Virus record (IMG/VR): IMGVR_UViG_3300020162_001876
Location: 46,999 to 110,998 of that record
Source: a virus
DNA length: 64,000 bases
Direction: 5' to 3' (one strand)
Below the pieces are notes generated by a model. That model was not told the DNA's origin and ran no database searches. It worked only from the letters and a program-made list of their open reading frames with translations. A program made the position numbers and the translations under genes. This document shows, piece after piece, positions 53,844 through 60,502 of this stretch (the stretch's first letter is position 1; each line of letters starts with the position of its first letter).

Positions 53844-54026
53844 ATGAAAAAAGTATTTTTAGTATTAGCATTAGTAGCAACAGTTTTAGTATCTTGTAAC
53901 AAAGTAAACACAGCTGAAACATCAACAGTAGATTCAACAGCAGTAGTAGTTGATACAGTACAAGTTGATTCAACAGTAGTTAGCGATGATGAAGCGAGAG
54001 ATTATTTAAAAGATACTGTAAAGTAA
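53844..54026 (+). CDS. small lipoprotein
   Basis: MKKVFLVLALVATVLVS-C lipobox, DST/DTV-rich tail. Confidence 0.75.
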   Translation: MKKVFLVLALVATVLVSCNKVNTAETSTVDSTAVVVDTVQVDSTVVSDDEARDYLKDTVK

Positions 54027-54182
54027 TTACCAACGCTCGCTGTTAATTGAGAAGTAGAGTGTATTAATTTCCGAACAAGGGTTTATAGTAGGAAGAGCTC
54101 ACTCATTGCACTCAATCAGAAACCCTGCTCAAAGTAATAGGTACAAATTCCTATTATTCCCTGAAAGACCAAGGTTGGTAAT
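54026..54182 (+). ncRNA. putative structured RNA with possible pseudoknot
   Basis: Closing stem ATTACCAAC/GTTGGTAAT; crossing helices 54057-63/54107-13 and 54078-84/54120-26. Confidence 0.5.
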
Positions 54183-54189
54183 AAAAAAG

Positions 54190-54276
54190 AGTCGATTGGT
54201 GTAAGTGGGAATAAATACCACATTAGAGTAACATCGAGGCTGCCTCGGGATGAGGGTTCGAATCCCTCATCGACTC
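54190..54276 (+). ncRNA. tRNA-like RNA with 3-nt anticodon loop and D-loop insertion
   Basis: Acceptor AGTCGAT/ATCGACT, T arm GAGGG-TTCGAAT-CCCTC, arm CGAGG-ctg-CCTCG. Confidence 0.6.
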
Positions 54277-54317
54277 CAAATTAAACTACCGTTCTTTGAA
54301 ATAAACTAAATATAATT

Positions 54318-54629
54318 ATGGAACAAATTTTAGCATTTGTTTTAGGTGTTAGTGCAGTTGCCTTTGTATGGGTAGTTGTGGTAGCGTTTAAGACAGCAAG
54401 CAAAGTAAAGGGATTTGAAAAACAATTCCAATCTATATACACATCTTTAATTAACAGAGATGAATTAGTAAATCGTAGAATAGACGAAGAAATCAACAGA
54501 GTAGATCTAATCTACAGCGAATGTAACAGACATACAGACTCCAGAGTAGATAAATTAGAAGCAAAAATCTTATCAGTTAATAAGGATGGTTGCAAACCTG
54601 TTAAGAAAAAAAAATTAATAAAAGGATAA
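54318..54629 (+). CDS. N-terminal TM coiled-coil protein, flanked by 12-bp inverted repeat
   Basis: Hydrophobic N-terminus; IR at 54285-96 and 54639-50. Confidence 0.65.
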   Translation: MEQILAFVLGVSAVAFVWVVVVAFKTASKVKGFEKQFQSIYTSLINRDELVNRRIDEEINRVDLIYSECNRHTDSRVDKLEAKILSVNKDGCKPVKKKKLIKG

Positions 54630-54656
54630 ATTAATCCGAAGAACGGTAGTAAAATA

Positions 54657-54688
54657 TTTGGCTTCCCAAAAAGAAATTATTATATTAA
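54657..54688 (+). promoter_or_regulatory. early-type promoter TTTGG-N19-TATATTAA
   Basis: Consensus and spacing match. Confidence 0.7.
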
Positions 54689-54762
54689 GTTATATTAAAA
54701 AAAGAAAAAAATAATTCGAGGTTTTTATCTCTATTATATATTTATAATCACATAAAATTAAA

Positions 54763-54909
54763 ATGACAACAATTCAAAACATACATCAAGATTTAACTAC
54801 AATAATGAGTAGAGCACTTAATACGTGGTCGCAGCTGTTATGTGGGGATGTCATTTTAGGCTTTAGCGCGTATAATAACGAACCGAAACAAGGTGGGATC
54901 GGAGTATGA
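54763..54909 (+). CDS. 48 aa putative leader peptide upstream of tRNA array, not in ORF track
   Basis: MTTIQNIHQDLTTIMSRALNTWSQLLCGDVILGFSAYNNEPKQGGIGV; A-rich start context, ATATTTAT at 54738. Confidence 0.6.
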   Translation: MTTIQNIHQDLTTIMSRALNTWSQLLCGDVILGFSAYNNEPKQGGIGV

Positions 54910-54939
54910 TATAATTAAGTAAACATATAAACTTAAATC

Positions 54940-54978
54940 AAGACTCGGATCAAAATAAAAGATTCGAGTCTTTTTTTT
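54940..54978 (+). terminator. intrinsic terminator / putative attenuator
   Basis: AAGACTCGGATC-aaaataaaa-GATTCGAGTCTT plus T8; 5' arm can alternatively pair with 54897-54905. Confidence 0.8.
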
Positions 54979-54986
54979 CACTTAGG

Positions 54987-55018
54987 TTTGGCTTTTGGAA
55001 ATAAGTTTCGTATATTAT
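54987..55018 (+). promoter_or_regulatory. early-type promoter for tRNA array
   Basis: tttgg-N19-tatattat. Confidence 0.7.
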
Positions 55019-55068
55019 AGCATAATAAGAAAATAAAGAAAAAGAAAGTAAAAAAGATTTAAAATAAG

Positions 55069-55140
55069 TTTGGCTCTCGAAAAAGAGTTTCGTATATTAA
55101 ATCATAATAAAAAATAAAGAGTTCATTGACATATTGGATA
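55069..55140 (+). promoter_or_regulatory. early-type promoter plus boxA-like element
   Basis: tttgg-N19-tatattaa then GTTCATTGACATATTGGATA; near-duplicated at 58634-58698. Confidence 0.7.
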
Positions 55141-55149
55141 AAGTAAAAA

Positions 55150-55234
55150 GGAGGTGTGGACAGTTGGTTGTTAAGCGGTCTTGAAAATCGTCGCCCGTGC
55201 ATTCGGGTTGCAGGTTCGAATCCTGTCGCCTCCG
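55150..55234 (+). tRNA. tRNA-Ser(TGA)
   Basis: Cloverleaf with long variable arm, loop CT-TGA-AA. Confidence 0.85.
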
Positions 55235-55240
55235 CAATAT

Positions 55241-55312
55241 TGGCTCATAGTGTAACGGTTAGCACAAAACACTTTGACTGTTTTAGTCCAAGTTCGAATC
55301 TTGGTGAGCCAA
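55241..55312 (+). tRNA. tRNA-Gln(TTG)
   Basis: AAACA-CT-TTG-AC-TGTTT. Confidence 0.9.
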
Positions 55313-55321
55313 CAACAATTT

Positions 55322-55392
55322 CTAGTAGCGAAGCCCGGTTTCATGCCTCACTTGGACTGAGGAGTACGCAGGTTCGAATCCTGCCTATTAGA
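55322..55392 (+). tRNA. tRNA-Pro(TGG), atypical D arm
   Basis: CCTCA-CT-TGG-AC-TGAGG, canonical T arm. Confidence 0.75.
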
Positions 55393-55398
55393 CGAAAG

Positions 55399-55454
55399 GA
55401 GACTGTTACTAATTTATTGGACCTCATAGTGGGGGGAATCGTAGAATTAGATTT
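55399..55454 (+). repeat. inter-tRNA repeat element copy 1
   Basis: GAGACTGTTACTAATT...CGTAGAATTAGATTT. Confidence 0.8.
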
Positions 55455-55455
55455 T

Positions 55456-55528
55456 GCCTTCGAAGCTCATGTGGACGGGCACTCCGCTTTTAACGGAGGG
55501 GTAGATGGTTCGAGGCCATCCGGGGGTA
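55456..55528 (+). tRNA. tRNA-Lys(TTT)
   Basis: CTCCG-CT-TTT-AA-CGGAG. Confidence 0.85.
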
Positions 55529-55534
55529 CGAGAA

Positions 55535-55596
55535 GAGACTGTTACTAATTCATAGAAGACCACGCGAGTAAGTCCTCGAAGCGTAGAATTAGATTT
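55535..55596 (+). repeat. inter-tRNA repeat element copy 2
   Basis: Same 16-nt and 15-nt flanks as copy 1, different core. Confidence 0.8.
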
Positions 55597-55667
55597 GCCT
55601 CGTTGGCGTAATGGTAGCGTATTTGTTTTACATGCAAATGGCAGTGGTTCGATTCCACTACGAGGTA
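55597..55667 (+). tRNA. tRNA-Val(TAC)
   Basis: TTTGT-TT-TAC-AT-GCAAA. Confidence 0.88.
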
Positions 55668-55768
55668 CAAAAATGGGGATGATAGGCGATATCTAGCGGC
55701 AATTGGGTATCTGGGTTCATAGCCATACTATGAAATGTTAGTTTTGCCGAATTAATAGAGTAGTAGTT

Positions 55769-55838
55769 TCGTTAATAGTGTAGCGGAAACACGCCAGCTG
55801 TGAAAGCTGGAGGGTAGGGTTCGAGACCCGTTAATGAG
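55769..55838 (+). ncRNA. aberrant tRNA-like RNA (loop TGTGAAA, weak T stem)
   Basis: Acceptor TCGTTAA/TTAATGA, D arm GTGT-agcggaa-ACAC, arm CCAGC/GCTGG. Confidence 0.5.
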
Positions 55839-55845
55839 CAAAATT

Positions 55846-55927
55846 GGGTAGCAAAAGTCGTTCGGATACGGCAGCGAGACTGTAAATCTCGTCCTTATAG
55901 GGAGTGGTTCGAGTCCACTGTTACCCA
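55846..55927 (+). tRNA. tRNA-Tyr(GTA)
   Basis: CGAGA-CT-GTA-AA-TCTCG, variable arm. Confidence 0.85.
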
Positions 55928-55940
55928 CTGTATTAACTTG

Positions 55941-56013
55941 GGGCCTTTTGTATAGCTGGTGCGTACGCTAGTCTGAAGAACTAGAGGAACAGGTTCGATT
56001 CCTGTAGGGCCCA
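55941..56013 (+). tRNA. tRNA-Phe(GAA)
   Basis: CTAGT-CT-GAA-GA-ACTAG. Confidence 0.88.
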
Positions 56014-56092
56014 CGAAGAAGGAGAATGTGGGTTCGAATCCCACCTGGTCTAGCTAAAACTGGGTCGGTAGTGTAACGGTAACATAACTTCG
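56014..56092 (+). ncRNA. circularly permuted tRNA-like RNA (T arm, looped acceptor, D arm)
   Basis: GTGGG-TTCGAAT-CCCAC, then CTGGTCTAG-ctaaaa-CTGGGTCGG, then TA-GTGT-aacggta-ACAT, closed by CGAAG/CTTCG. Confidence 0.65.
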
Positions 56093-56097
56093 CATTA

Positions 56098-56169
56098 GGA
56101 TCCTTAGCTCAGAGGCAGAGCGGTTGTTTGTTAGGCAACGGGTCGAGATTTCGAAATTCTCAGGATCCT
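56098..56169 (+). tRNA. tRNA-Asn(GTT) copy 1, atypical T loop
   Basis: GTTGT-TT-GTT-AG-GCAAC; acceptor GGATCCT/AGGATCC. Confidence 0.75.
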
Positions 56170-56175
56170 CAAAAT

Positions 56176-56247
56176 TGGCTTGTCGTATAAAGGTTATTAC
56201 GGATGACTGTTAATCATCTTATGAAGGTTCGATTCCTTCCAGGCCAG
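56176..56247 (+). tRNA. tRNA-Asn(GTT) copy 2
   Basis: GATGA-CT-GTT-AA-TCATC. Confidence 0.9.
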
Positions 56248-56254
56248 CAAAATT

Positions 56255-56326
56255 GCTCCTATAGTAGAATGGTTAGCACACATCTCTGATAAGGATGAAA
56301 TGGAGGTTCAATTCCTTCTAGGAGTA
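56255..56326 (+). tRNA. tRNA-Ile(GAT)
   Basis: CATCT-CT-GAT-AA-GGATG. Confidence 0.88.
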
Positions 56327-56332
56327 CAAAAT

Positions 56333-56417
56333 GGAAAGTAAATCACACAGGGTGTGAGACCGCTTGCTAAGCGAATCATGCGTTAATTCGCATGGGGATC
56401 GAGACCTCTGCTTTCCT
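56333..56417 (+). tRNA. tRNA-Ser(GCT)
   Basis: Loop TT-GCT-AA, long variable arm CATGCG/CGCATG. Confidence 0.75.
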
Positions 56418-56548
56418 CAAAAAAACCTCTTCACCGTCCTCACAACGCATCTAAGGAATGTAGGAGATGAAAGTACGAACGGGGCCCTGTGGTAAGACAC
56501 TTTAAAATCAGATAGTACAATGATAGAGTAAGGGGTTCTCTATCAACT

Positions 56549-56618
56549 GCCGACTTGATCAGGTGATCGAAAATATCTCATAAGTATTTTCAGAGTGGAT
56601 CGTTACCACTAGTCGGTA
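56549..56618 (+). tRNA. tRNA-Met(CAT), elongator-like
   Basis: AATAT-CT-CAT-AA-GTATT; acceptor GCCGACT/AGTCGGT. Confidence 0.75.
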
Positions 56619-56621
56619 CAA

Positions 56622-56672
56622 AAATCAACGAGACGAAGGAGGTCACGTAGGTTCGAATCCTACCGTTGATTT
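56622..56672 (+). ncRNA. minihelix-like tRNA mimic (acceptor + T arm only)
   Basis: AAATCAACG-16 nt-GTAGG-TTCGAAT-CCTAC-CGTTGATTT. Confidence 0.55.
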
Positions 56673-56679
56673 AGTATAT

Positions 56680-56750
56680 GGTGGTTCTAGCTTATCGGTA
56701 AAGCGCTTGACTGTGAATCAGGAGAACAGGGTTCGATCCCCGGAATCACC
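56680..56750 (+). tRNA. tRNA-His(GTG)
   Basis: CTTGA-CT-GTG-AA-TCAGG; G-1 and C73 present. Confidence 0.9.
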
Positions 56751-56764
56751 CAAAATTAATTATT

Positions 56765-56965
56765 ATGGCAAGAGAATACAGTGAAAGTGAAAAAATGCTA
56801 CTTGAAGCAGTAGTTGGATTGTTTATAATACATCCTAACCCTCAATTAAAAGGTAAAGAAAAAAGAGTAATGAAAATTGCTTATGAGGTAATGGATAAAA
56901 TGTTAGAAAAAAATGCCCCTGTGGTGAAAATGGTAAACACACTATCTTTAAACGGTAGCGCTTAG
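56765..56965 (+). CDS. hypothetical protein whose 3' end runs into tRNA-Leu
   Basis: Good A-rich start; stop falls inside the tRNA variable arm. Confidence 0.45.
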   Translation: MAREYSESEKMLLEAVVGLFIIHPNPQLKGKEKRVMKIAYEVMDKMLEKNAPVVKMVNTLSLNGSA

Positions 56966-56994
56966 GCTTGCTGGTTCGACTCCAGTCAGGGGTA
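56915..56994 (+). tRNA. tRNA-Leu(TAA)
   Basis: CTATC-TT-TAA-AC-GGTAG, variable arm. Confidence 0.88.
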
Positions 56995-56999
56995 CAAAA

Positions 57000-57102
57000 T
57001 TGGAGTGGTGGAATTGGTAAACATCTTCCCTATCCGGCAGAGATAGGTACACTAGGCTGAGGATGCAATAAACTCAGTGCAGGTTCAAATCCTGTCTCCA
57101 AC
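57000..57102 (+). ncRNA. expanded tRNA-like RNA with two internal hairpins
   Basis: TTGGAG/CTCCAA acceptor, Leu-like D arm, CCTATC-cggcaga-GATAGG, CTGAG/CTCAG, T arm GCAGG-TTCAAAT-CCTGT. Confidence 0.55.
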
Positions 57103-57108
57103 TTAACT

Positions 57109-57181
57109 GGTCTTATAGCATAAATGGAAATGCACTTGAATACGAATCAAGAGATTGTAGGTTCGACTCCTACTAAGACCT
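57109..57181 (+). tRNA. tRNA-Arg(ACG)
   Basis: CTTGA-AT-ACG-AA-TCAAG. Confidence 0.85.
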
Positions 57182-57186
57182 CAACT

Positions 57187-57257
57187 GCCCTTATAGTTCA
57201 AAGGAAGAACATATCTCTTCTAAAGATAGAATCCTGGTTCGAGTCCAGGTAGGGGTT
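57187..57257 (+). tRNA. tRNA-Arg(TCT)
   Basis: TATCT-CT-TCT-AA-AGATA. Confidence 0.88.
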
Positions 57258-57331
57258 CAAAAAAATCGTCTTGGATCATTTGATATGATTTAATGGGTAA
57301 CACCTGGTAGGTTAAGCGATATCCTATAAAT

Positions 57332-57400
57332 GCGTCACAGGCTAAGGTAGCCAAATGGATTCCAACCCCATAGGACAGAGTTCGATTCTTTGGTGGCGCG
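57332..57400 (+). tRNA. tRNA-Trp(CCA)
   Basis: ATGGA-TT-CCA-AC-CCCAT; acceptor GCGTCAC/GTGGCGC. Confidence 0.8.
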
Positions 57401-57404
57401 CAAT

Positions 57405-57477
57405 TGGGGTAAAAGCACATAAGGATGTGCAGGCGGTAGACGCCGCAAGGCCTGGGTTCGAATCCCAAGTACTCCAC
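57405..57477 (+). ncRNA. tRNA-like RNA with 4-5 nt anticodon loop
   Basis: TGGGGTA/TACTCCA, D arm GCAC/GTGC, GGCG-gtaga-CGCC, T loop TTCGAAT. Confidence 0.55.
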
Positions 57478-57543
57478 AAAAGTATTAATTATGAAAAAGA
57501 AATTCGATGCTCATTAGGTTTATTAACCTAAAATTTGAGCAAA

Positions 57544-57723
57544 ATGAGAATCAAAAACTATACTAACAAAGAGTATAAAAAAGAAAAAAGAAAAGAGTAT
57601 AAGGAATGGGATACTTGGTTTGAAGATTATTGGAGTAAAAAGTCAAAAATATGGGCTTTTAAATACCGAGAATATAGAACCTGGAAGTATAACAGAAAAA
57701 CACAATATAAACCTTTAAAATAA
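57544..57723 (+). CDS. small basic/aromatic protein ending RTWKYNRKTQYK
   Basis: ATG at 57544 follows a hairpin; K/W/Y-rich. Confidence 0.55.
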   Translation: MRIKNYTNKEYKKEKRKEYKEWDTWFEDYWSKKSKIWAFKYREYRTWKYNRKTQYKPLK

Positions 57724-57729
57724 GTTATC

Positions 57730-58236
57730 ATGAGTAAACATCAGAAAACACTAGTAGTGGATTCAAGCTTTATCGCAAGAAGTATTATACCTGCAGAAAG
57801 AGCATTTGTGATTTCTTATAAAGGTAATGCAGAGGTAATAGCAGAACATCCAGAAACATTTGGATTAGTAAATCCAAATCTAGAGATTTACAAACCTTCT
57901 ATTATTAGAGTATTCACTTATGTGAAACAACACATACATAAAGTTGCTCTGACAAGAGATAACATCTACAAAAGAGATAACTATGAATGTGTATATTGTG
58001 GAAGTTCAAATCAAAGAACACTAACATTGGATCACGTGGTTCCTCAATCAAAAGGAGGAAAAGATAGCTGGGACAATTTAGTAACAGCATGCAGAACATG
58101 TAATCAGGAAAAAGCTGATTTAACATTAGAGGAATATGGAAAAGAAATTCCAGAACCAAAACGTCCACATTACCTGATGCTATTAAGACAAGTTCAGGAC
58201 ATACCAAGAGAATGGGAAACATTTTTATTCTTTTAG
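57730..58236 (+). CDS. HNH endonuclease (McrA-like)
   Basis: RDNYECVYCG, TLDHVVPQSKGG, WDNLVTACRTCNQEK. Confidence 0.92.
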   Translation: MSKHQKTLVVDSSFIARSIIPAERAFVISYKGNAEVIAEHPETFGLVNPNLEIYKPSIIRVFTYVKQHIHKVALTRDNIYKRDNYECVYCGSSNQRTLTLDHVVPQSKGGKDSWDNLVTACRTCNQEKADLTLEEYGKEIPEPKRPHYLMLLRQVQDIPREWETFLFF

Positions 58237-58245
58237 TAAAAAAAG

Positions 58246-58277
58246 TTTGGAAATTAGAAATAAAGTTCGTATATTTA
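58246..58277 (+). promoter_or_regulatory. early-type promoter TTTGG-N19-TATATTTA
   Basis: Consensus and spacing match. Confidence 0.7.
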
Positions 58278-58295
58278 AGTATAAGAAATTAAGAT

Positions 58296-58469
58296 ATGAA
58301 AGATTTTTTAAATTGGTTAGTAGGACTTCCAAAATGTAAAAAAGGAGGAAGATGTAATTCAGATTCAGAAATGGAATATACATTAGCCTCAAAAAGATTC
58401 TTTGAAAAGACAAATAGATGGTGCTGTTCTAAATGTAATAAAGAAGTAACAGACTATTTTAAAATTTAA
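58296..58469 (+). CDS. 57 aa Cys-rich protein (possible Zn ribbon), not in ORF track
   Basis: MKDFLNWLVGLPKCKKGGRC...WCCSKCNKEVTDYFKI directly behind a promoter. Confidence 0.55.
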   Translation: MKDFLNWLVGLPKCKKGGRCNSDSEMEYTLASKRFFEKTNRWCCSKCNKEVTDYFKI

Positions 58470-58543
58470 AATCACCTACTACAAAACAGCACGTGAAATT
58501 AATACTGACTTGTACTGTCTGGAAGGTCAGGCTAGGTGAATTT

Positions 58544-58613
58544 GGGCAGGATGGTCTTGGAGGCCGGCAGGATTGCAAACTCTGCAGAGTAAGTTCGATT
58601 CTTACCTTGCCCT
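58544..58613 (+). tRNA. tRNA-Cys(GCA)
   Basis: Loop TT-GCA-AA, U73 discriminator. Confidence 0.8.
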
Positions 58614-58633
58614 CAAAAAAAGATTAAAAAAGG

Positions 58634-58698
58634 TTTGGCTATCGGAAATTAATTTCGTATATTAAATCATAATAAAAAGATCATTGAAATATTGGATA
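58634..58698 (+). promoter_or_regulatory. second tRNA-block promoter plus boxA-like element
   Basis: tttgg-N19-tatattaaatcataataaaaa then GATCATTGAAATATTGGATA. Confidence 0.7.
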
Positions 58699-58707
58699 AG
58701 ATAAATT

Positions 58708-58780
58708 GCCCGAGTGGTGGAACGGCAGACACGCTTGACTTAGGATCAAGATATTGCGGGTTCGAATCCCGCCTTGGGTA
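58708..58780 (+). tRNA. tRNA-Leu(TAG) with short variable loop
   Basis: CTTGA-CT-TAG-GA-TCAAG; only ATATT between anticodon and T arms. Confidence 0.85.
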
Positions 58781-58789
58781 CAAAATTTA

Positions 58790-58970
58790 AAATCACTTGC
58801 TTGAAGATAAACAAATGATAAGAGGTAGTCTATTACAAACGTACAAAATAGATTATCATTAAACTGTACTAGCAGTTGTGTTTGTTGTAGAGATAGACCT
58901 GGAAAAACAGGATAAAGAAGAGAATCTGGAAACAGTAAATCTATTCCACTAGAATTTGGACAAGTGATTT
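58790..58970 (+). ncRNA. putative ~180 nt multi-hairpin RNA
   Basis: Perfect 10-bp closing stem AAATCACTTG/CAAGTGATTT, several internal hairpins. Confidence 0.5.
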
Positions 58971-58980
58971 AAAACTAAAA

Positions 58981-59047
58981 TTAGAGTTAGCTTATAGTAA
59001 AGCAGCAGGGGCTAACCTGCAGAACGGATACGAGAACCGGCTCTAAT
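58981..59047 (+). ncRNA. tRNA-like RNA with 6-nt loop GGCTAA and degenerate T arm
   Basis: TTAGAGT/GCTCTAA, GCTT/AAGC D stem, GCAGG/CCTGC. Confidence 0.5.
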
Positions 59048-59052
59048 TATTT

Positions 59053-59124
59053 GCTTCTGAAACATAAATGGTAATGTACTTGATTTGTACTCAAGAAAAC
59101 GGGGTTCGATTCCTCGCAGAAGCT
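59053..59124 (+). tRNA. tRNA-Thr(TGT)
   Basis: CTTGA-TT-TGT-AC-TCAAG. Confidence 0.85.
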
Positions 59125-59132
59125 CAATAATT

Positions 59133-59206
59133 GCATCATTCGCCTAGTAGGTATGGCACCACACTTCCAATGTGGAATAAGGCCGGTTCGAGACCGGCAT
59201 GATGCT
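59133..59206 (+). tRNA. tRNA-Gly(TCC)
   Basis: CCACA-CT-TCC-AA-TGTGG, U73. Confidence 0.88.
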
Positions 59207-59257
59207 CAAGGGTGTGTGGGAACCCAAGAATATGTGATGAACATATACCCACAATCT

Positions 59258-59329
59258 GCTGCGTTAGTGAAGAGGTTAACACGTATCACTTTCTATGATA
59301 AGGCACGGGTTCGAATCCCGTACGCAGTA
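59258..59329 (+). tRNA. tRNA-Glu(TTC)
   Basis: TATCA-CT-TTC-TA-TGATA. Confidence 0.85.
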
Positions 59330-59335
59330 CAATTT

Positions 59336-59407
59336 GGGGCTATAGTATAACGGCTATTACAATGGTTTTGCAAATCATAAATTGGAGTTCGATTCTCCAT
59401 AGCTCCA
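59336..59407 (+). tRNA. tRNA-Ala(TGC)
   Basis: ATGGT-TT-TGC-AA-ATCAT, G3:U70 pair. Confidence 0.9.
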
Positions 59408-59463
59408 CAATAGCTTAATCGACTTTTGACAGATTTGACAACTTGGAACAGACAAGTAATTTT

Positions 59464-59535
59464 GGTCTATTGGTCCAGGGGAATGGATGCCTGCCTGTCA
59501 CGTAGGAGACCCGGGTTCGAATCCCGGATAGACCG
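59464..59535 (+). tRNA. tRNA-Asp(GTC)
   Basis: CCTGC-CT-GTC-AC-GTAGG, G73. Confidence 0.9.
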
Positions 59536-59540
59536 CATAT

Positions 59541-59613
59541 CGCGAGGGGGAGGTAAGGTATCTCATGACTCTCATAAGGTCACTTAAATCGGTTCAATTC
59601 CGGTCCTACGCTA
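59541..59613 (+). tRNA. tRNA-Met(CAT), initiator-like, irregular acceptor
   Basis: Starts CGCG, loop CT-CAT-AA. Confidence 0.65.
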
Positions 59614-59619
59614 CAAATT

Positions 59620-59691
59620 GGTCTCGTAGCTCAGAGGTAGAGCAAGTTCCTCATAAGAACGAGGTCGGGATATCATAATTCCCCGGGACCA
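59620..59691 (+). tRNA. tRNA(CAT), Ile2- or Met-type
   Basis: GTTC-CT-CAT-AA-GAAC; acceptor GGTCTCG/CGGGACC; atypical T loop. Confidence 0.7.
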
Positions 59692-59757
59692 CAAAATTTA
59701 TCCAATATGAGAGCAATTCAATCGTCTCCAATGTAGTTTTAGCTATTAGCTAAAATT

Positions 59758-59991
59758 ATGACTCAGAAATTGAGAATTTGGAGAGTAGTCCCAACCAGCA
59801 TGACTGGTGTTCAGGCTCCCACGTTTTTTGTTGAAACAACACAGAACGGACGAGAAGAAGCAGAAAAATCTGCAAACCTACAAGCAAGACAAAAATCTAG
59901 CTTGGGTAAGTTTAACAATTGGTATTTTGATTTAACAAGAATGAATGTCAGAGTTGACAAACATGGGAGGTATATCAAACATCACCAATAA
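59758..59991 (+). CDS. hypothetical protein
   Basis: 77 aa, start preceded by hairpin. Confidence 0.5.
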   Translation: MTQKLRIWRVVPTSMTGVQAPTFFVETTQNGREEAEKSANLQARQKSSLGKFNNWYFDLTRMNVRVDKHGRYIKHHQ

Positions 59992-60012
59992 TAAAAAGTA
60001 TTTGAAGAAAGA

Positions 60013-60044
60013 TTTGGATATCTGGATCTTTCTTCTTATATTTA
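60013..60044 (+). promoter_or_regulatory. early-type promoter TTTGG-N19-TATATTTA
   Basis: Consensus and spacing match. Confidence 0.7.
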
Positions 60045-60061
60045 AGTATAAAATAAAAGTT

Positions 60062-60502
60062 ATGGAAAAAGAATTTGTACCTTACGAACAAGCATTAGAT
60101 TTAAAAGAATTAGGGTTTAATAGAAGAACATTCTCGCAGTATAATACACACCAGGGTAATGAGTGGATATTAACATTTGATTTGTCGGGAGAAGGTCAGT
60201 ATCCTAATAACTCTCCAGCATGTATAGCACCAACATTTTCACAAGCATTTAGATGGTTGTTAATTTTAGTAAATAAAAATAAACATTTTAGTAACAAATG
60301 GACAATTAGCTACAATGAGGATTATTACTCTTTATTTTTAGGCGGTTGTAATATGGGAGTATTTAAAGCAGAACTTGAATGTTTAAAGAAACTAATTGAA
60401 ATAGTAAAACAATCACAAAAAATATATGATGAGAGTCCACATAGTAAAACATTCAGAACACCTGCAAGTGATTACAACTCTAGAGGTGGTTATCGTAAAT
60501 AA
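60062..60502 (+). CDS. hypothetical phage protein (MEKEFVPYEQALDLKELGF...APTFSQAFRW)
   Basis: Start moved to the ATG downstream of the promoter at 60013. Confidence 0.7.
   Translation: MEKEFVPYEQALDLKELGFNRRTFSQYNTHQGNEWILTFDLSGEGQYPNNSPACIAPTFSQAFRWLLILVNKNKHFSNKWTISYNEDYYSLFLGGCNMGVFKAELECLKKLIEIVKQSQKIYDESPHSKTFRTPASDYNSRGGYRK

Follow-up and report, generated by a model that had tools for sequence, protein, structure and literature searches.

The window analysed here, 64,000 nucleotides in length, is the final 64 kb of the 111-kb IMG/VR virus record IMGVR_UViG_3300020162_001876, a genome with a guanine plus cytosine (GC) content of 29.7%. Its nearest named relative is Flavobacterium phage vB_FspM_immuto, to which it shows 89.7% DNA identity, only over a 103-amino-acid gene that neighbors the region described below. 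We examined a short leader region at the head of a transfer RNA (tRNA) array, which a sequence-only reading of the window had proposed to be an attenuator sensing the whole tRNA pool. On the plus strand, this region contains a 48-codon leader open reading frame (ORF; 54763-54909), an intrinsic terminator (54940-54978) and two strands predicted to form an alternative, antiterminating duplex (54897-54920 and 54931-54951), followed by the tRNA array (55150-59691).

The array comprises approximately 27 genes as judged from ARAGORN, Rfam and relaxed ARAGORN predictions. Default ARAGORN settings identified 24 of them. With three genes contributed by Rfam and relaxed ARAGORN, namely Ser(gct) (56333-56418), Trp(cca) (57332-57401) and a third tRNA with a CAT anticodon (59620-59691), the array forms a complete set for all 20 amino acids, matching the amino acid inventory of the leader ORF. 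Under standard wobble rules, 30 of the 35 distinct codons of the leader are readable by this array, and the leader codon ATA is also readable if one CAT tRNA is lysidine-modified. ACT, CTT and GGT require a U-U pair, and GTC and GGC require U-C.

The leader ORF runs from ATG to TGA and, as first counted from the sequence, contains all 20 amino acids and 35 distinct codons; both counts were reproduced. Its start context is A-rich and has no Shine-Dalgarno sequence, the absence of which is usual in Bacteroidota. The null for this composition comprised every 48-codon window (25,941 in total) in the 102 ORFs that reach 100 amino acids or more in the same 111-kb genome. These windows hold a mean of 16.0 amino acid types, with a probability of 0.0049 that all 20 are present (0.0014-0.005 for all 20 within 40-48 codons). 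Distinct codons average 24.1 (standard deviation 2.75), and the leader lies far above such random windows, with 35 or more expected at P = 0.00015; a codon diversity within the random range had been named as grounds for abandoning the proposal. The 127 windows that do hold 20 amino acid types contain 27.9 ± 2.2 distinct codons with a maximum of 33, and among the genome's non-tRNA ORFs of 30-60 amino acids the leader is the sole one with all 20. The G/C-ending codons flagged as out of place in the sequence-only reading are scarce elsewhere in the genome: such codons make up 35% of the leader vs 13.6% genome-wide (P = 0.003), and those named account for 1-5% of their families (ACG, 1% of Thr; CTG, 1%; TCG and CCG, 2% each; GTC and AGC, 3% each; GGC, 4%; GCG, 5%).

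The encoded peptide shows no sign of a folded protein family. It belongs to no family in Pfam or PHROGs, its best score in the ESM Atlas (0.78) is under any useful level, and an AlphaFold2 model reached a mean predicted local distance difference test score (pLDDT) of 56 and a predicted template modeling score (pTM) of 0.25. A decayed, GC-rich tRNA was also considered as the source of the ORF and was rejected, as no tRNA model matched it and its frame is maintained, with indels of whole codons only.

Peptide scans of viral and metagenome contigs yielded 44 non-identical loci, and a later scan added approximately 11 more, for a total of about 55 distinct loci. At every complete locus the leader ORF is intact and 44-51 codons long (one protein-database copy has 54), and all length differences are whole codons, including insertions of one, four and six codons. 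Wherever the flank suffices, the same intrinsic terminator follows the leader and is in turn followed by a plus-strand tRNA array, mostly beginning Ser-Gln-Pro. At all 41 loci with sufficient downstream sequence, the array starts 106-290 nt 3' of the leader stop codon (one at 772 nt), and its first gene according to ARAGORN is tRNA-Ser(tga) in 38 of the 41, with Gln(ttg) and Pro(tgg) next. The array is located approximately 40 kb away from the 103-amino-acid neighbor gene in two contigs, and there the leader ORF is found at the array; thus, the leader belongs to the array and not to the genes upstream of it.

The syntenic place in phage immuto (L001 3387-3542) is occupied by an annotated 51-amino-acid ORF with 18 amino acid types, directly before tRNA-Ser. 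No terminator was found at this place and there are few tRNAs nearby. Because this ORF is unrelated in sequence and lacks a terminator, it was rejected as a homolog and we regard the leader system as absent from the nearest named phage.

Terminator, antiterminator and ribosome position

The terminator has a 12-bp stem with arms AAGACTCGGATC (54940-54951) and GATTCGAGTCTT (54961-54972), a 9-nt loop and a T8 tract ending at 54978, and its calculated stability of -15.7 kcal/mol agrees with the strong terminator originally noted at this position. A simple terminator scanner overlooked it only because its loop is longer than 8 nt. In an alignment of 42 sequences, 99.5% of the stem cells are paired and five of ten pairs show compensatory changes. 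Relatives have a stem of 9-12 bp followed by a T-run, so that a terminator stands before the putatively regulated genes there as well. The exceptions are L137 (~6200), in which the 3' arm is deleted, and L075 (~320), which has a G-to-A change in the 5' arm. The latter change weakens both the terminator and the antiterminator. These two loci are natural variants of the putative switch and may serve as natural controls if such phages are cultured.

The 5' strand of the predicted antiterminator (54897-54920) is made up of the last four codons of the ORF, its stop codon and 11 nt beyond it (GATCGGAGT / TGAT / TTAAGT), and the 3' strand (54931-54951) reads ACTTAA / ATCA / ACTCGGATC. As the last 9-12 nt of the 3' strand are the 5' arm of the terminator, the two structures are mutually exclusive. 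The duplex between this ORF tail and the arm is predicted at -10.5 kcal/mol in the window (p = 0.004 vs shuffled tails). The pairing that had been proposed for these segments exists, although it is less perfect than drawn: at the center of the outer helix of 9 bp, a G stands opposite a G, leaving eight of nine pairs.

In all but one of 42 sequences, the corresponding duplex has an energy between -7.6 and -13.2 kcal/mol. Comparison to shuffled tails favors the true tail in 35 of the 42 at p ≤ 0.05, a count that rises to 41 at p ≤ 0.075. When folding of the nascent RNA stops after the 5' arm, tail and arm are paired in the structure of lowest energy for 40 of the 42, and these structures (-7.4 to -18.5 kcal/mol) enclose a conserved hairpin that contains the stop codon. 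Once the 3' arm is added, the terminator prevails in folding. Tails bind their own arms with a mean of -9.3 kcal/mol, compared to -8.14 ± 0.29 kcal/mol with arms permuted among 23 haplotypes, and none of 20,000 permutations did as well. With the register fixed, pairing extends to 92.4% of cells and three of five pairs are compensatory (0 of 500 shuffles), while controls slid along the sequence reach at most 55%.

Covariation between tail and arm takes several forms. The tail CCGAG occurs with the arm CTCGG in 15 of 15 cases and never with CCCGG among the first 42 sequences, and CCGGG is matched by CCCGG, or by CTCGG via G-U pairing. Further co-varying combinations are GATTTGGG with CCCAAATC, (G)ATTTGGG with CCCAAATC or CCCGAATC, and GATCTGGG with CCCGGATC. 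A clade found later does combine a CCGAG tail with a CCCGG arm; here, the arm has gained an upstream GGUACC that pairs with GGUACC in the tail (L134-136). In the most distant clade (L144; 41% peptide identity), the tail is different and longer and forms a perfect 7-bp helix, UUCCGGG with CCCGGAA. The peptide encoded by the tail varies widely (GGIGV, GGTEV, TKTGI, KDTDLG, TNHIWE, PRHISGYIMS). Because the pairing co-varies while the tail peptide is free to change (ratio of nonsynonymous to synonymous polymorphism, pN/pS, 1.28), the constraint on the tail is one on RNA and not on protein. An antiterminator that uses the 5' arm of the terminator is thus supported by covariation, and homologs were found to retain the alternative pairing by compensatory change while the local peptide varies, the opposite of what had been named as evidence against the proposal. 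RNAalifold gave no consensus for the tail-to-arm segment, where clades differ in pairing register and the 3' end was misaligned by MAFFT; support for the pairing is drawn instead from the per-sequence folding, permutation test and fixed-register pair counts above.

Ribosome positions were modeled at 40 loci by masking -15 to +14 nt around the A-site codon, codon by codon, and refolding the nascent RNA. In this model, at all 40 loci, tail-arm pairing is possible with the A site at codons 1 to ~41, and the last permissive codon lies six to seven codons before the end of the ORF. A ribosome whose A site holds the stop codon or one of the three codons before it excludes the pairing at every locus. 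The exact boundary shifts by about one codon with the footprint assumed. Masking of the ribosome footprint had been suggested as a check in the sequence-only reading, and the outcome predicted there is what the model gives: a ribosome at the stop codon would block the antiterminator and an upstream ribosome would permit it. In silico, then, the antiterminator strand overlaps the ORF and the position of the ribosome selects the structure. In all 40 loci, the set of 20 amino acids is completed within one codon of the antitermination boundary, and the same prefix pattern is seen in the protein set described next.

The amino acid inventory and competing explanations

Each of the 42 complete loci has all 20 amino acids. 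When 5.8 billion proteins were searched with a profile, 234 matches were returned, and among the matches listed there are 120 cluster representatives, of which 116 contain all 20 amino acids and the other four miss one each. Under a column-shuffle null, 100.8 ± 2.4 sequences are expected to be complete; the highest count among 2000 trials was 107, so that the observed 116 was never reached (0 of 2000). More distant relatives, the 21 representatives of clusters at ≤50% identity (44-54 amino acids), hold all 20 in 15 cases and carry Arg, Trp, His and Cys at quite different positions. The usual His (column 8) has become Gln in 13 sequences, and all 13 carry a His elsewhere, at column 6, 12, 16 or 51; a second His is found in only 4% of the sequences that keep His-8, and two-His intermediates exist. 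One sequence has lost the usual Tyr and has a new one five residues upstream, and another has lost the usual Trp and has one within a 4-codon insertion. The inventory exceeds the column-shuffle null because losses of single-copy residues are compensated by relocation, and on this comparative evidence it appears to be selected. Presence anywhere in the ORF, and not at a given position, is the prediction of a codon-sampling leader and not of a folded protein. Homologs that conserve the peptide without the codon spread had been listed as a possible refutation; instead, the inventory is kept even when a single-copy amino acid relocates.

We consider it likely that a translation-coupled attenuator of some kind operates at this locus. 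The narrower proposal, that a ribosome-mediated attenuator at the head of a phage tRNA operon monitors the supply of all charged tRNAs, is in our view probable, and the comparative evidence (codon diversity, covarying pairing, relocating inventory and linkage to the array) supports the pan-tRNA-sensing attenuator that was first suggested from the sequence. In such a switch, a host-type promoter approximately 20 nt upstream would produce a short mRNA, and the 48-codon ORF would be translated as RNA polymerase advances. The last codons of the ORF would be available to the complementary 5' arm of the terminator, approximately 30 nt downstream. With a ribosome at the last six to seven codons or at the stop codon when the terminator is transcribed, the tail would be covered, the hairpin would form and the transcript would end at about 54978. 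With a ribosome lagging in the first ~41 codons, the free tail would pair with the emerging 5' arm, no terminator would form and transcription would read through into the array. Because the permissive part holds at least one codon for each amino acid, a shortage of any one charged tRNA should raise read-through. New phage tRNAs would restore decoding and shut the switch, closing a feedback loop on decoding capacity. From this arrangement we infer translation of the ORF and coupling of transcription and translation in the host, as well as the direction and size of the effect and its physiological trigger. We hold only tentatively that the switch is a universal decoding gauge, in which loss of any one charged tRNA raises the phage tRNA set and the new tRNAs reclose the switch in a homeostatic manner. 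Host shut-off, starvation or a tRNA-cleaving defense system could be the cause of such tRNA loss.

Several observations weigh against an attenuator that gauges charged tRNAs, and some of them favor other explanations. In folding, the antiterminator forms without any ribosome in 34 of 40 loci, and no anti-antiterminator pairing has been demonstrated; since the antiterminator needs no ribosome to form, the model predicts the same read-through state for an untranslated leader. Under a looser stall model with a wider tail window, 14 of the 40 loci allow the 5' arm to reach over the ribosome and pair with the Pro-codon segment CCGA, which we treated as a modeling artefact. The terminator (-11 to -16.6 kcal/mol) is thermodynamically stronger than the outer helix of the antiterminator; therefore, the switch must act kinetically. 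Four of the 120 close representatives (among the matches listed) and six of the 21 distant ones miss one or two amino acids. A mirror test, in which a leader without an amino acid would head an array without that tRNA, gave a negative result at the one locus L143, whose leader lacks Cys and whose array has tRNA-Cys.

The same structural evidence, together with those six distant relatives, would also suit an attenuator that reports general translation status, such as ribosome availability, elongation rate or the presence of inhibitors, with the inventory as a by-product or minor contribution. The ORF has no runs of regulatory codons and instead contains every amino acid at least once, which would make it a variant of the leader-peptide attenuator, and a single codon per amino acid implies low gain per tRNA. 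We nevertheless find a general-status sensor unlikely, as a sensor of rate has no need of an inventory that is kept far above column shuffles, with single-copy residues that relocate, including at least four independent relocations of His.

Conservation of the peptide itself is a further difficulty. A core, S-L-C-G-D-V-I-L-G-F..Y-N-N-E-P-K, is conserved with a pN/pS of 0.36, which is beyond what selection for presence alone would produce and hints at a role at the peptide or RNA level. The sequence-only reading had expected codon diversity with poor peptide conservation among related phages; the inventory is indeed kept and the N-terminus and tail vary, but the core does not. Over the whole ORF, pN/pS is 0.70, compared to 0.68 for the neighboring 103-amino-acid gene, and because the neighbor gives the same ratio, pN/pS does not separate the leader from a real protein. 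Rare codons are retained only modestly more often than in a control gene (6 of 22 vs 4 of 41 conserved columns), and a predicted helix would partly account for the retention of rare codons such as TCG, AAC and CCG. This ORF-internal hairpin (54829-54888; codons 23-28 with 37-42; 12 bp plus a bulge, RNAalifold) encodes much of the conserved peptide core. Most relatives have a strong form of this hairpin. It is weakened in the clade of the window, where its pairs are disrupted and no compensating change is seen, and absent in L144; it has one compensatory change (G-C to A-U in L115) and does not sequester the tail. It might act as a pause or timing hairpin.

Two promoter-like repeats (TTTGGCT...TTTCGTATATTA) lie between the terminator and the array of the window (54987-55100; at 54988 and 55070), and one or two such motifs are found there in most relatives; only L022, L073 and L085 have no room for one (18-26 nt). 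These were anticipated in the sequence-only reading, which listed promoters at 54987 and 55069 as a caveat. Judged by their motifs, the downstream genes would have promoters of their own at most loci, and for this reason the switch may govern only part of array transcription.

With the core conserved, with promoter-like sites 3' of the terminator that could drive the array independently, and with a terminator that could merely end an upstream transcription unit, the locus could also be read as an ordinary small phage protein gene that has its own promoter and is followed by an ordinary terminator, its product acting in trans, perhaps in tRNA biology, and its complementarity and inventory having no regulatory meaning. 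This seems distinctly unlikely to us. It leaves unexplained the compensatory tail and arm changes in several registers, the near-neutral evolution of the N-terminal 20 residues (pN/pS 0.88) and of the tail, and the movement of single-copy residues between N- and C-terminal regions, and the peptide has no confident fold or family.

The core could alternatively belong to a nascent-peptide arrest sensor of the TnaC, SecM or Erm-leader kind, stalling the ribosome near N-N-E-P-K when a certain ligand or state is present and thereby freeing the tail for antitermination. The most conserved stretch, Y-N-N-E-P-K, ends exactly at the last codon at which a stalled ribosome leaves the tail free, and known arrest peptides often end in Pro. 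An arrest mechanism is, however, very unlikely, given that it does not account for the complete inventory and relocating residues, and that E-P-K becomes Q-P-K, E-Y-K, E-L-K or Q-P-R in distant relatives. Finally, a small RNA or structured non-coding leader with an accidentally open frame is highly improbable: the leader region is GC-richer than its surroundings and folding of the full 286-nt region is better than that of shuffled sequences (z = -4.3), but no complete copy has an interrupted frame, indel lengths are always divisible by three, variation is greatest at the third codon position, and a search of Rfam over 54700-54980 at E ≤ 10 returned no family other than a chance mir-15 match.

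Promoter-like and tRNA-proximal elements

Both of the promoter motifs reported upstream of the leader, at 54657 and 54738, were located. The first is a promoter-like repeat of the type TTTGGCT-N-TATATT (54655-54690; TTGGCT N17 TATATT at 54658), which may act as a promoter and is also conserved in phage immuto. The second motif, ATATTTAT, begins at 54738 within the leader's own promoter-like element (54720-54748), which carries a TATATTTAT box approximately 20 nt 5' of the ATG. A box of this type occurs at the same position, ahead of the A-rich start, in all relatives with enough flank, though the flanks differ. The -7 consensus of Bacteroidota is TAnnTTTG, and we take the TATATTTAT box of the leader to be close to it.

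The module TTTGGNT-N13-TTTCGTATATTA occurs in at least ten copies genome-wide (e.g. at 54658, 54988, 55070 and 58635 of the window), clustering in the first 5 kb of the contig (G000 12-4692) and around tRNA blocks. It represents another class than the TATATTTAT box, and the two may differ in timing. A conserved 21-nt motif, GTTCATTGACATATTGGATAA, is located at 55121-55141, with a second copy containing two mismatches at 58679-58699, and stands approximately 10 nt 5' of the first tRNA in each promoter-headed tRNA block. In nearly all relatives it is directly ahead of tRNA-Ser, even where no promoter-like motif precedes it, and it probably belongs to the 5' leader of the pre-tRNA. Some relatives (L014, L016, L023, L082, L135 and L137) have an insertion of approximately 130 nt between the terminator and GTTCATTGACATATTGGATAA. 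The insertion starts with GGGGCGGTGGT, contains GGTTCGA-type T-arm motifs and resembles a pair of odd tRNA-like elements before tRNA-Ser. Just 5' of the 103-amino-acid gene lies a GC-rich island (54200-54300; ~50% GC), at the place where immuto has an annotated tRNA-Cys. ARAGORN found no tRNA within the island, which may be a degenerate or unusual tRNA-like element.

Relation to known systems and significance

In the leader-peptide attenuators of amino acid operons (trpL, hisL, leuL and pheL, and the multivalent thrL and ilvGMEDA leaders), the position of the ribosome selects the hairpin and slow decoding leads to read-through. The locus described here resembles them in having a short, putatively translated ORF in the 5' leader, a terminator, and an antiterminator that shares the 5' arm of the terminator. 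Attenuation of this kind has been modeled for amino acid operons (PMC1183508). Unlike those operons, the phage locus would target tRNA genes in place of biosynthetic enzymes, and has one or few codons per amino acid in place of tandem codons. It also differs in that no 1:2 anti-antiterminator has been demonstrated, in its long leader (44-51 codons) with a conserved core, and in being phage-borne in a Bacteroidota-type host context.

Leaders of the Erm and Cat type control expression by ribosome stalling in response to translation inhibitors. The mef/mel leader is likewise an attenuator that answers translation inhibitors by ribosome stalling (PMC4335068). These leaders are similar to the phage locus in that a leader ORF turns elongation problems into read-through or expression of downstream genes, but their stalling is drug- and peptide-specific and they serve resistance genes, whereas here there is a full inventory and a tRNA output. 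T-box riboswitches bind uncharged tRNA directly, need no translation and carry a conserved T-box sequence. They, too, are terminator/antiterminator switches that report tRNA charging; in the phage locus, by contrast, the antiterminator strand is inside an ORF. A T-box riboswitch was rejected for this locus, as Rfam gave no T-box match at E ≤ 10 in 54000-60500.

The long tRNA array of Anabaena sp. PCC 7120 (trn operon) is induced when translation is impaired (PMC8421152). As a supernumerary, horizontally mobile tRNA array that is switched on under impaired translation, it parallels the phage array. It differs in its control by the transcriptional repressor TrcR (PMC10272220), with no leader peptide or attenuator described there, and in being cellular and not viral. 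Phage tRNAs have been found to counter tRNA-cleaving immunity and rescue infection (PMC10264068, PMC11464382), a similar setting in which host tRNA loss makes the phage tRNA supply decisive, although sensing or control of expression is not described there. No account of tRNA genes under leader-peptide control emerged from a full-text literature search. The proposed switch is a Yanofsky-type attenuator in its working principle; new are its tRNA-gene targets and its one-of-each inventory.

Why phages carry large tRNA sets, and when these are used, is a long-standing question, for which codon compensation, host tRNA decay and escape from anticodon nucleases have been proposed as reasons. The one-of-each inventory with relocating residues is in itself an unusual kind of sequence constraint. 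The switch is compact (~230 nt) and would be a natural reporter of global decoding capacity in Bacteroidota, where transcription-translation coupling has been little studied. If the proposal is true, attenuation would be extended from amino acid genes to tRNA genes and from one amino acid to all twenty, and a sensor before the array would mean that the phage tRNA supply is regulated on demand and is not constitutive.

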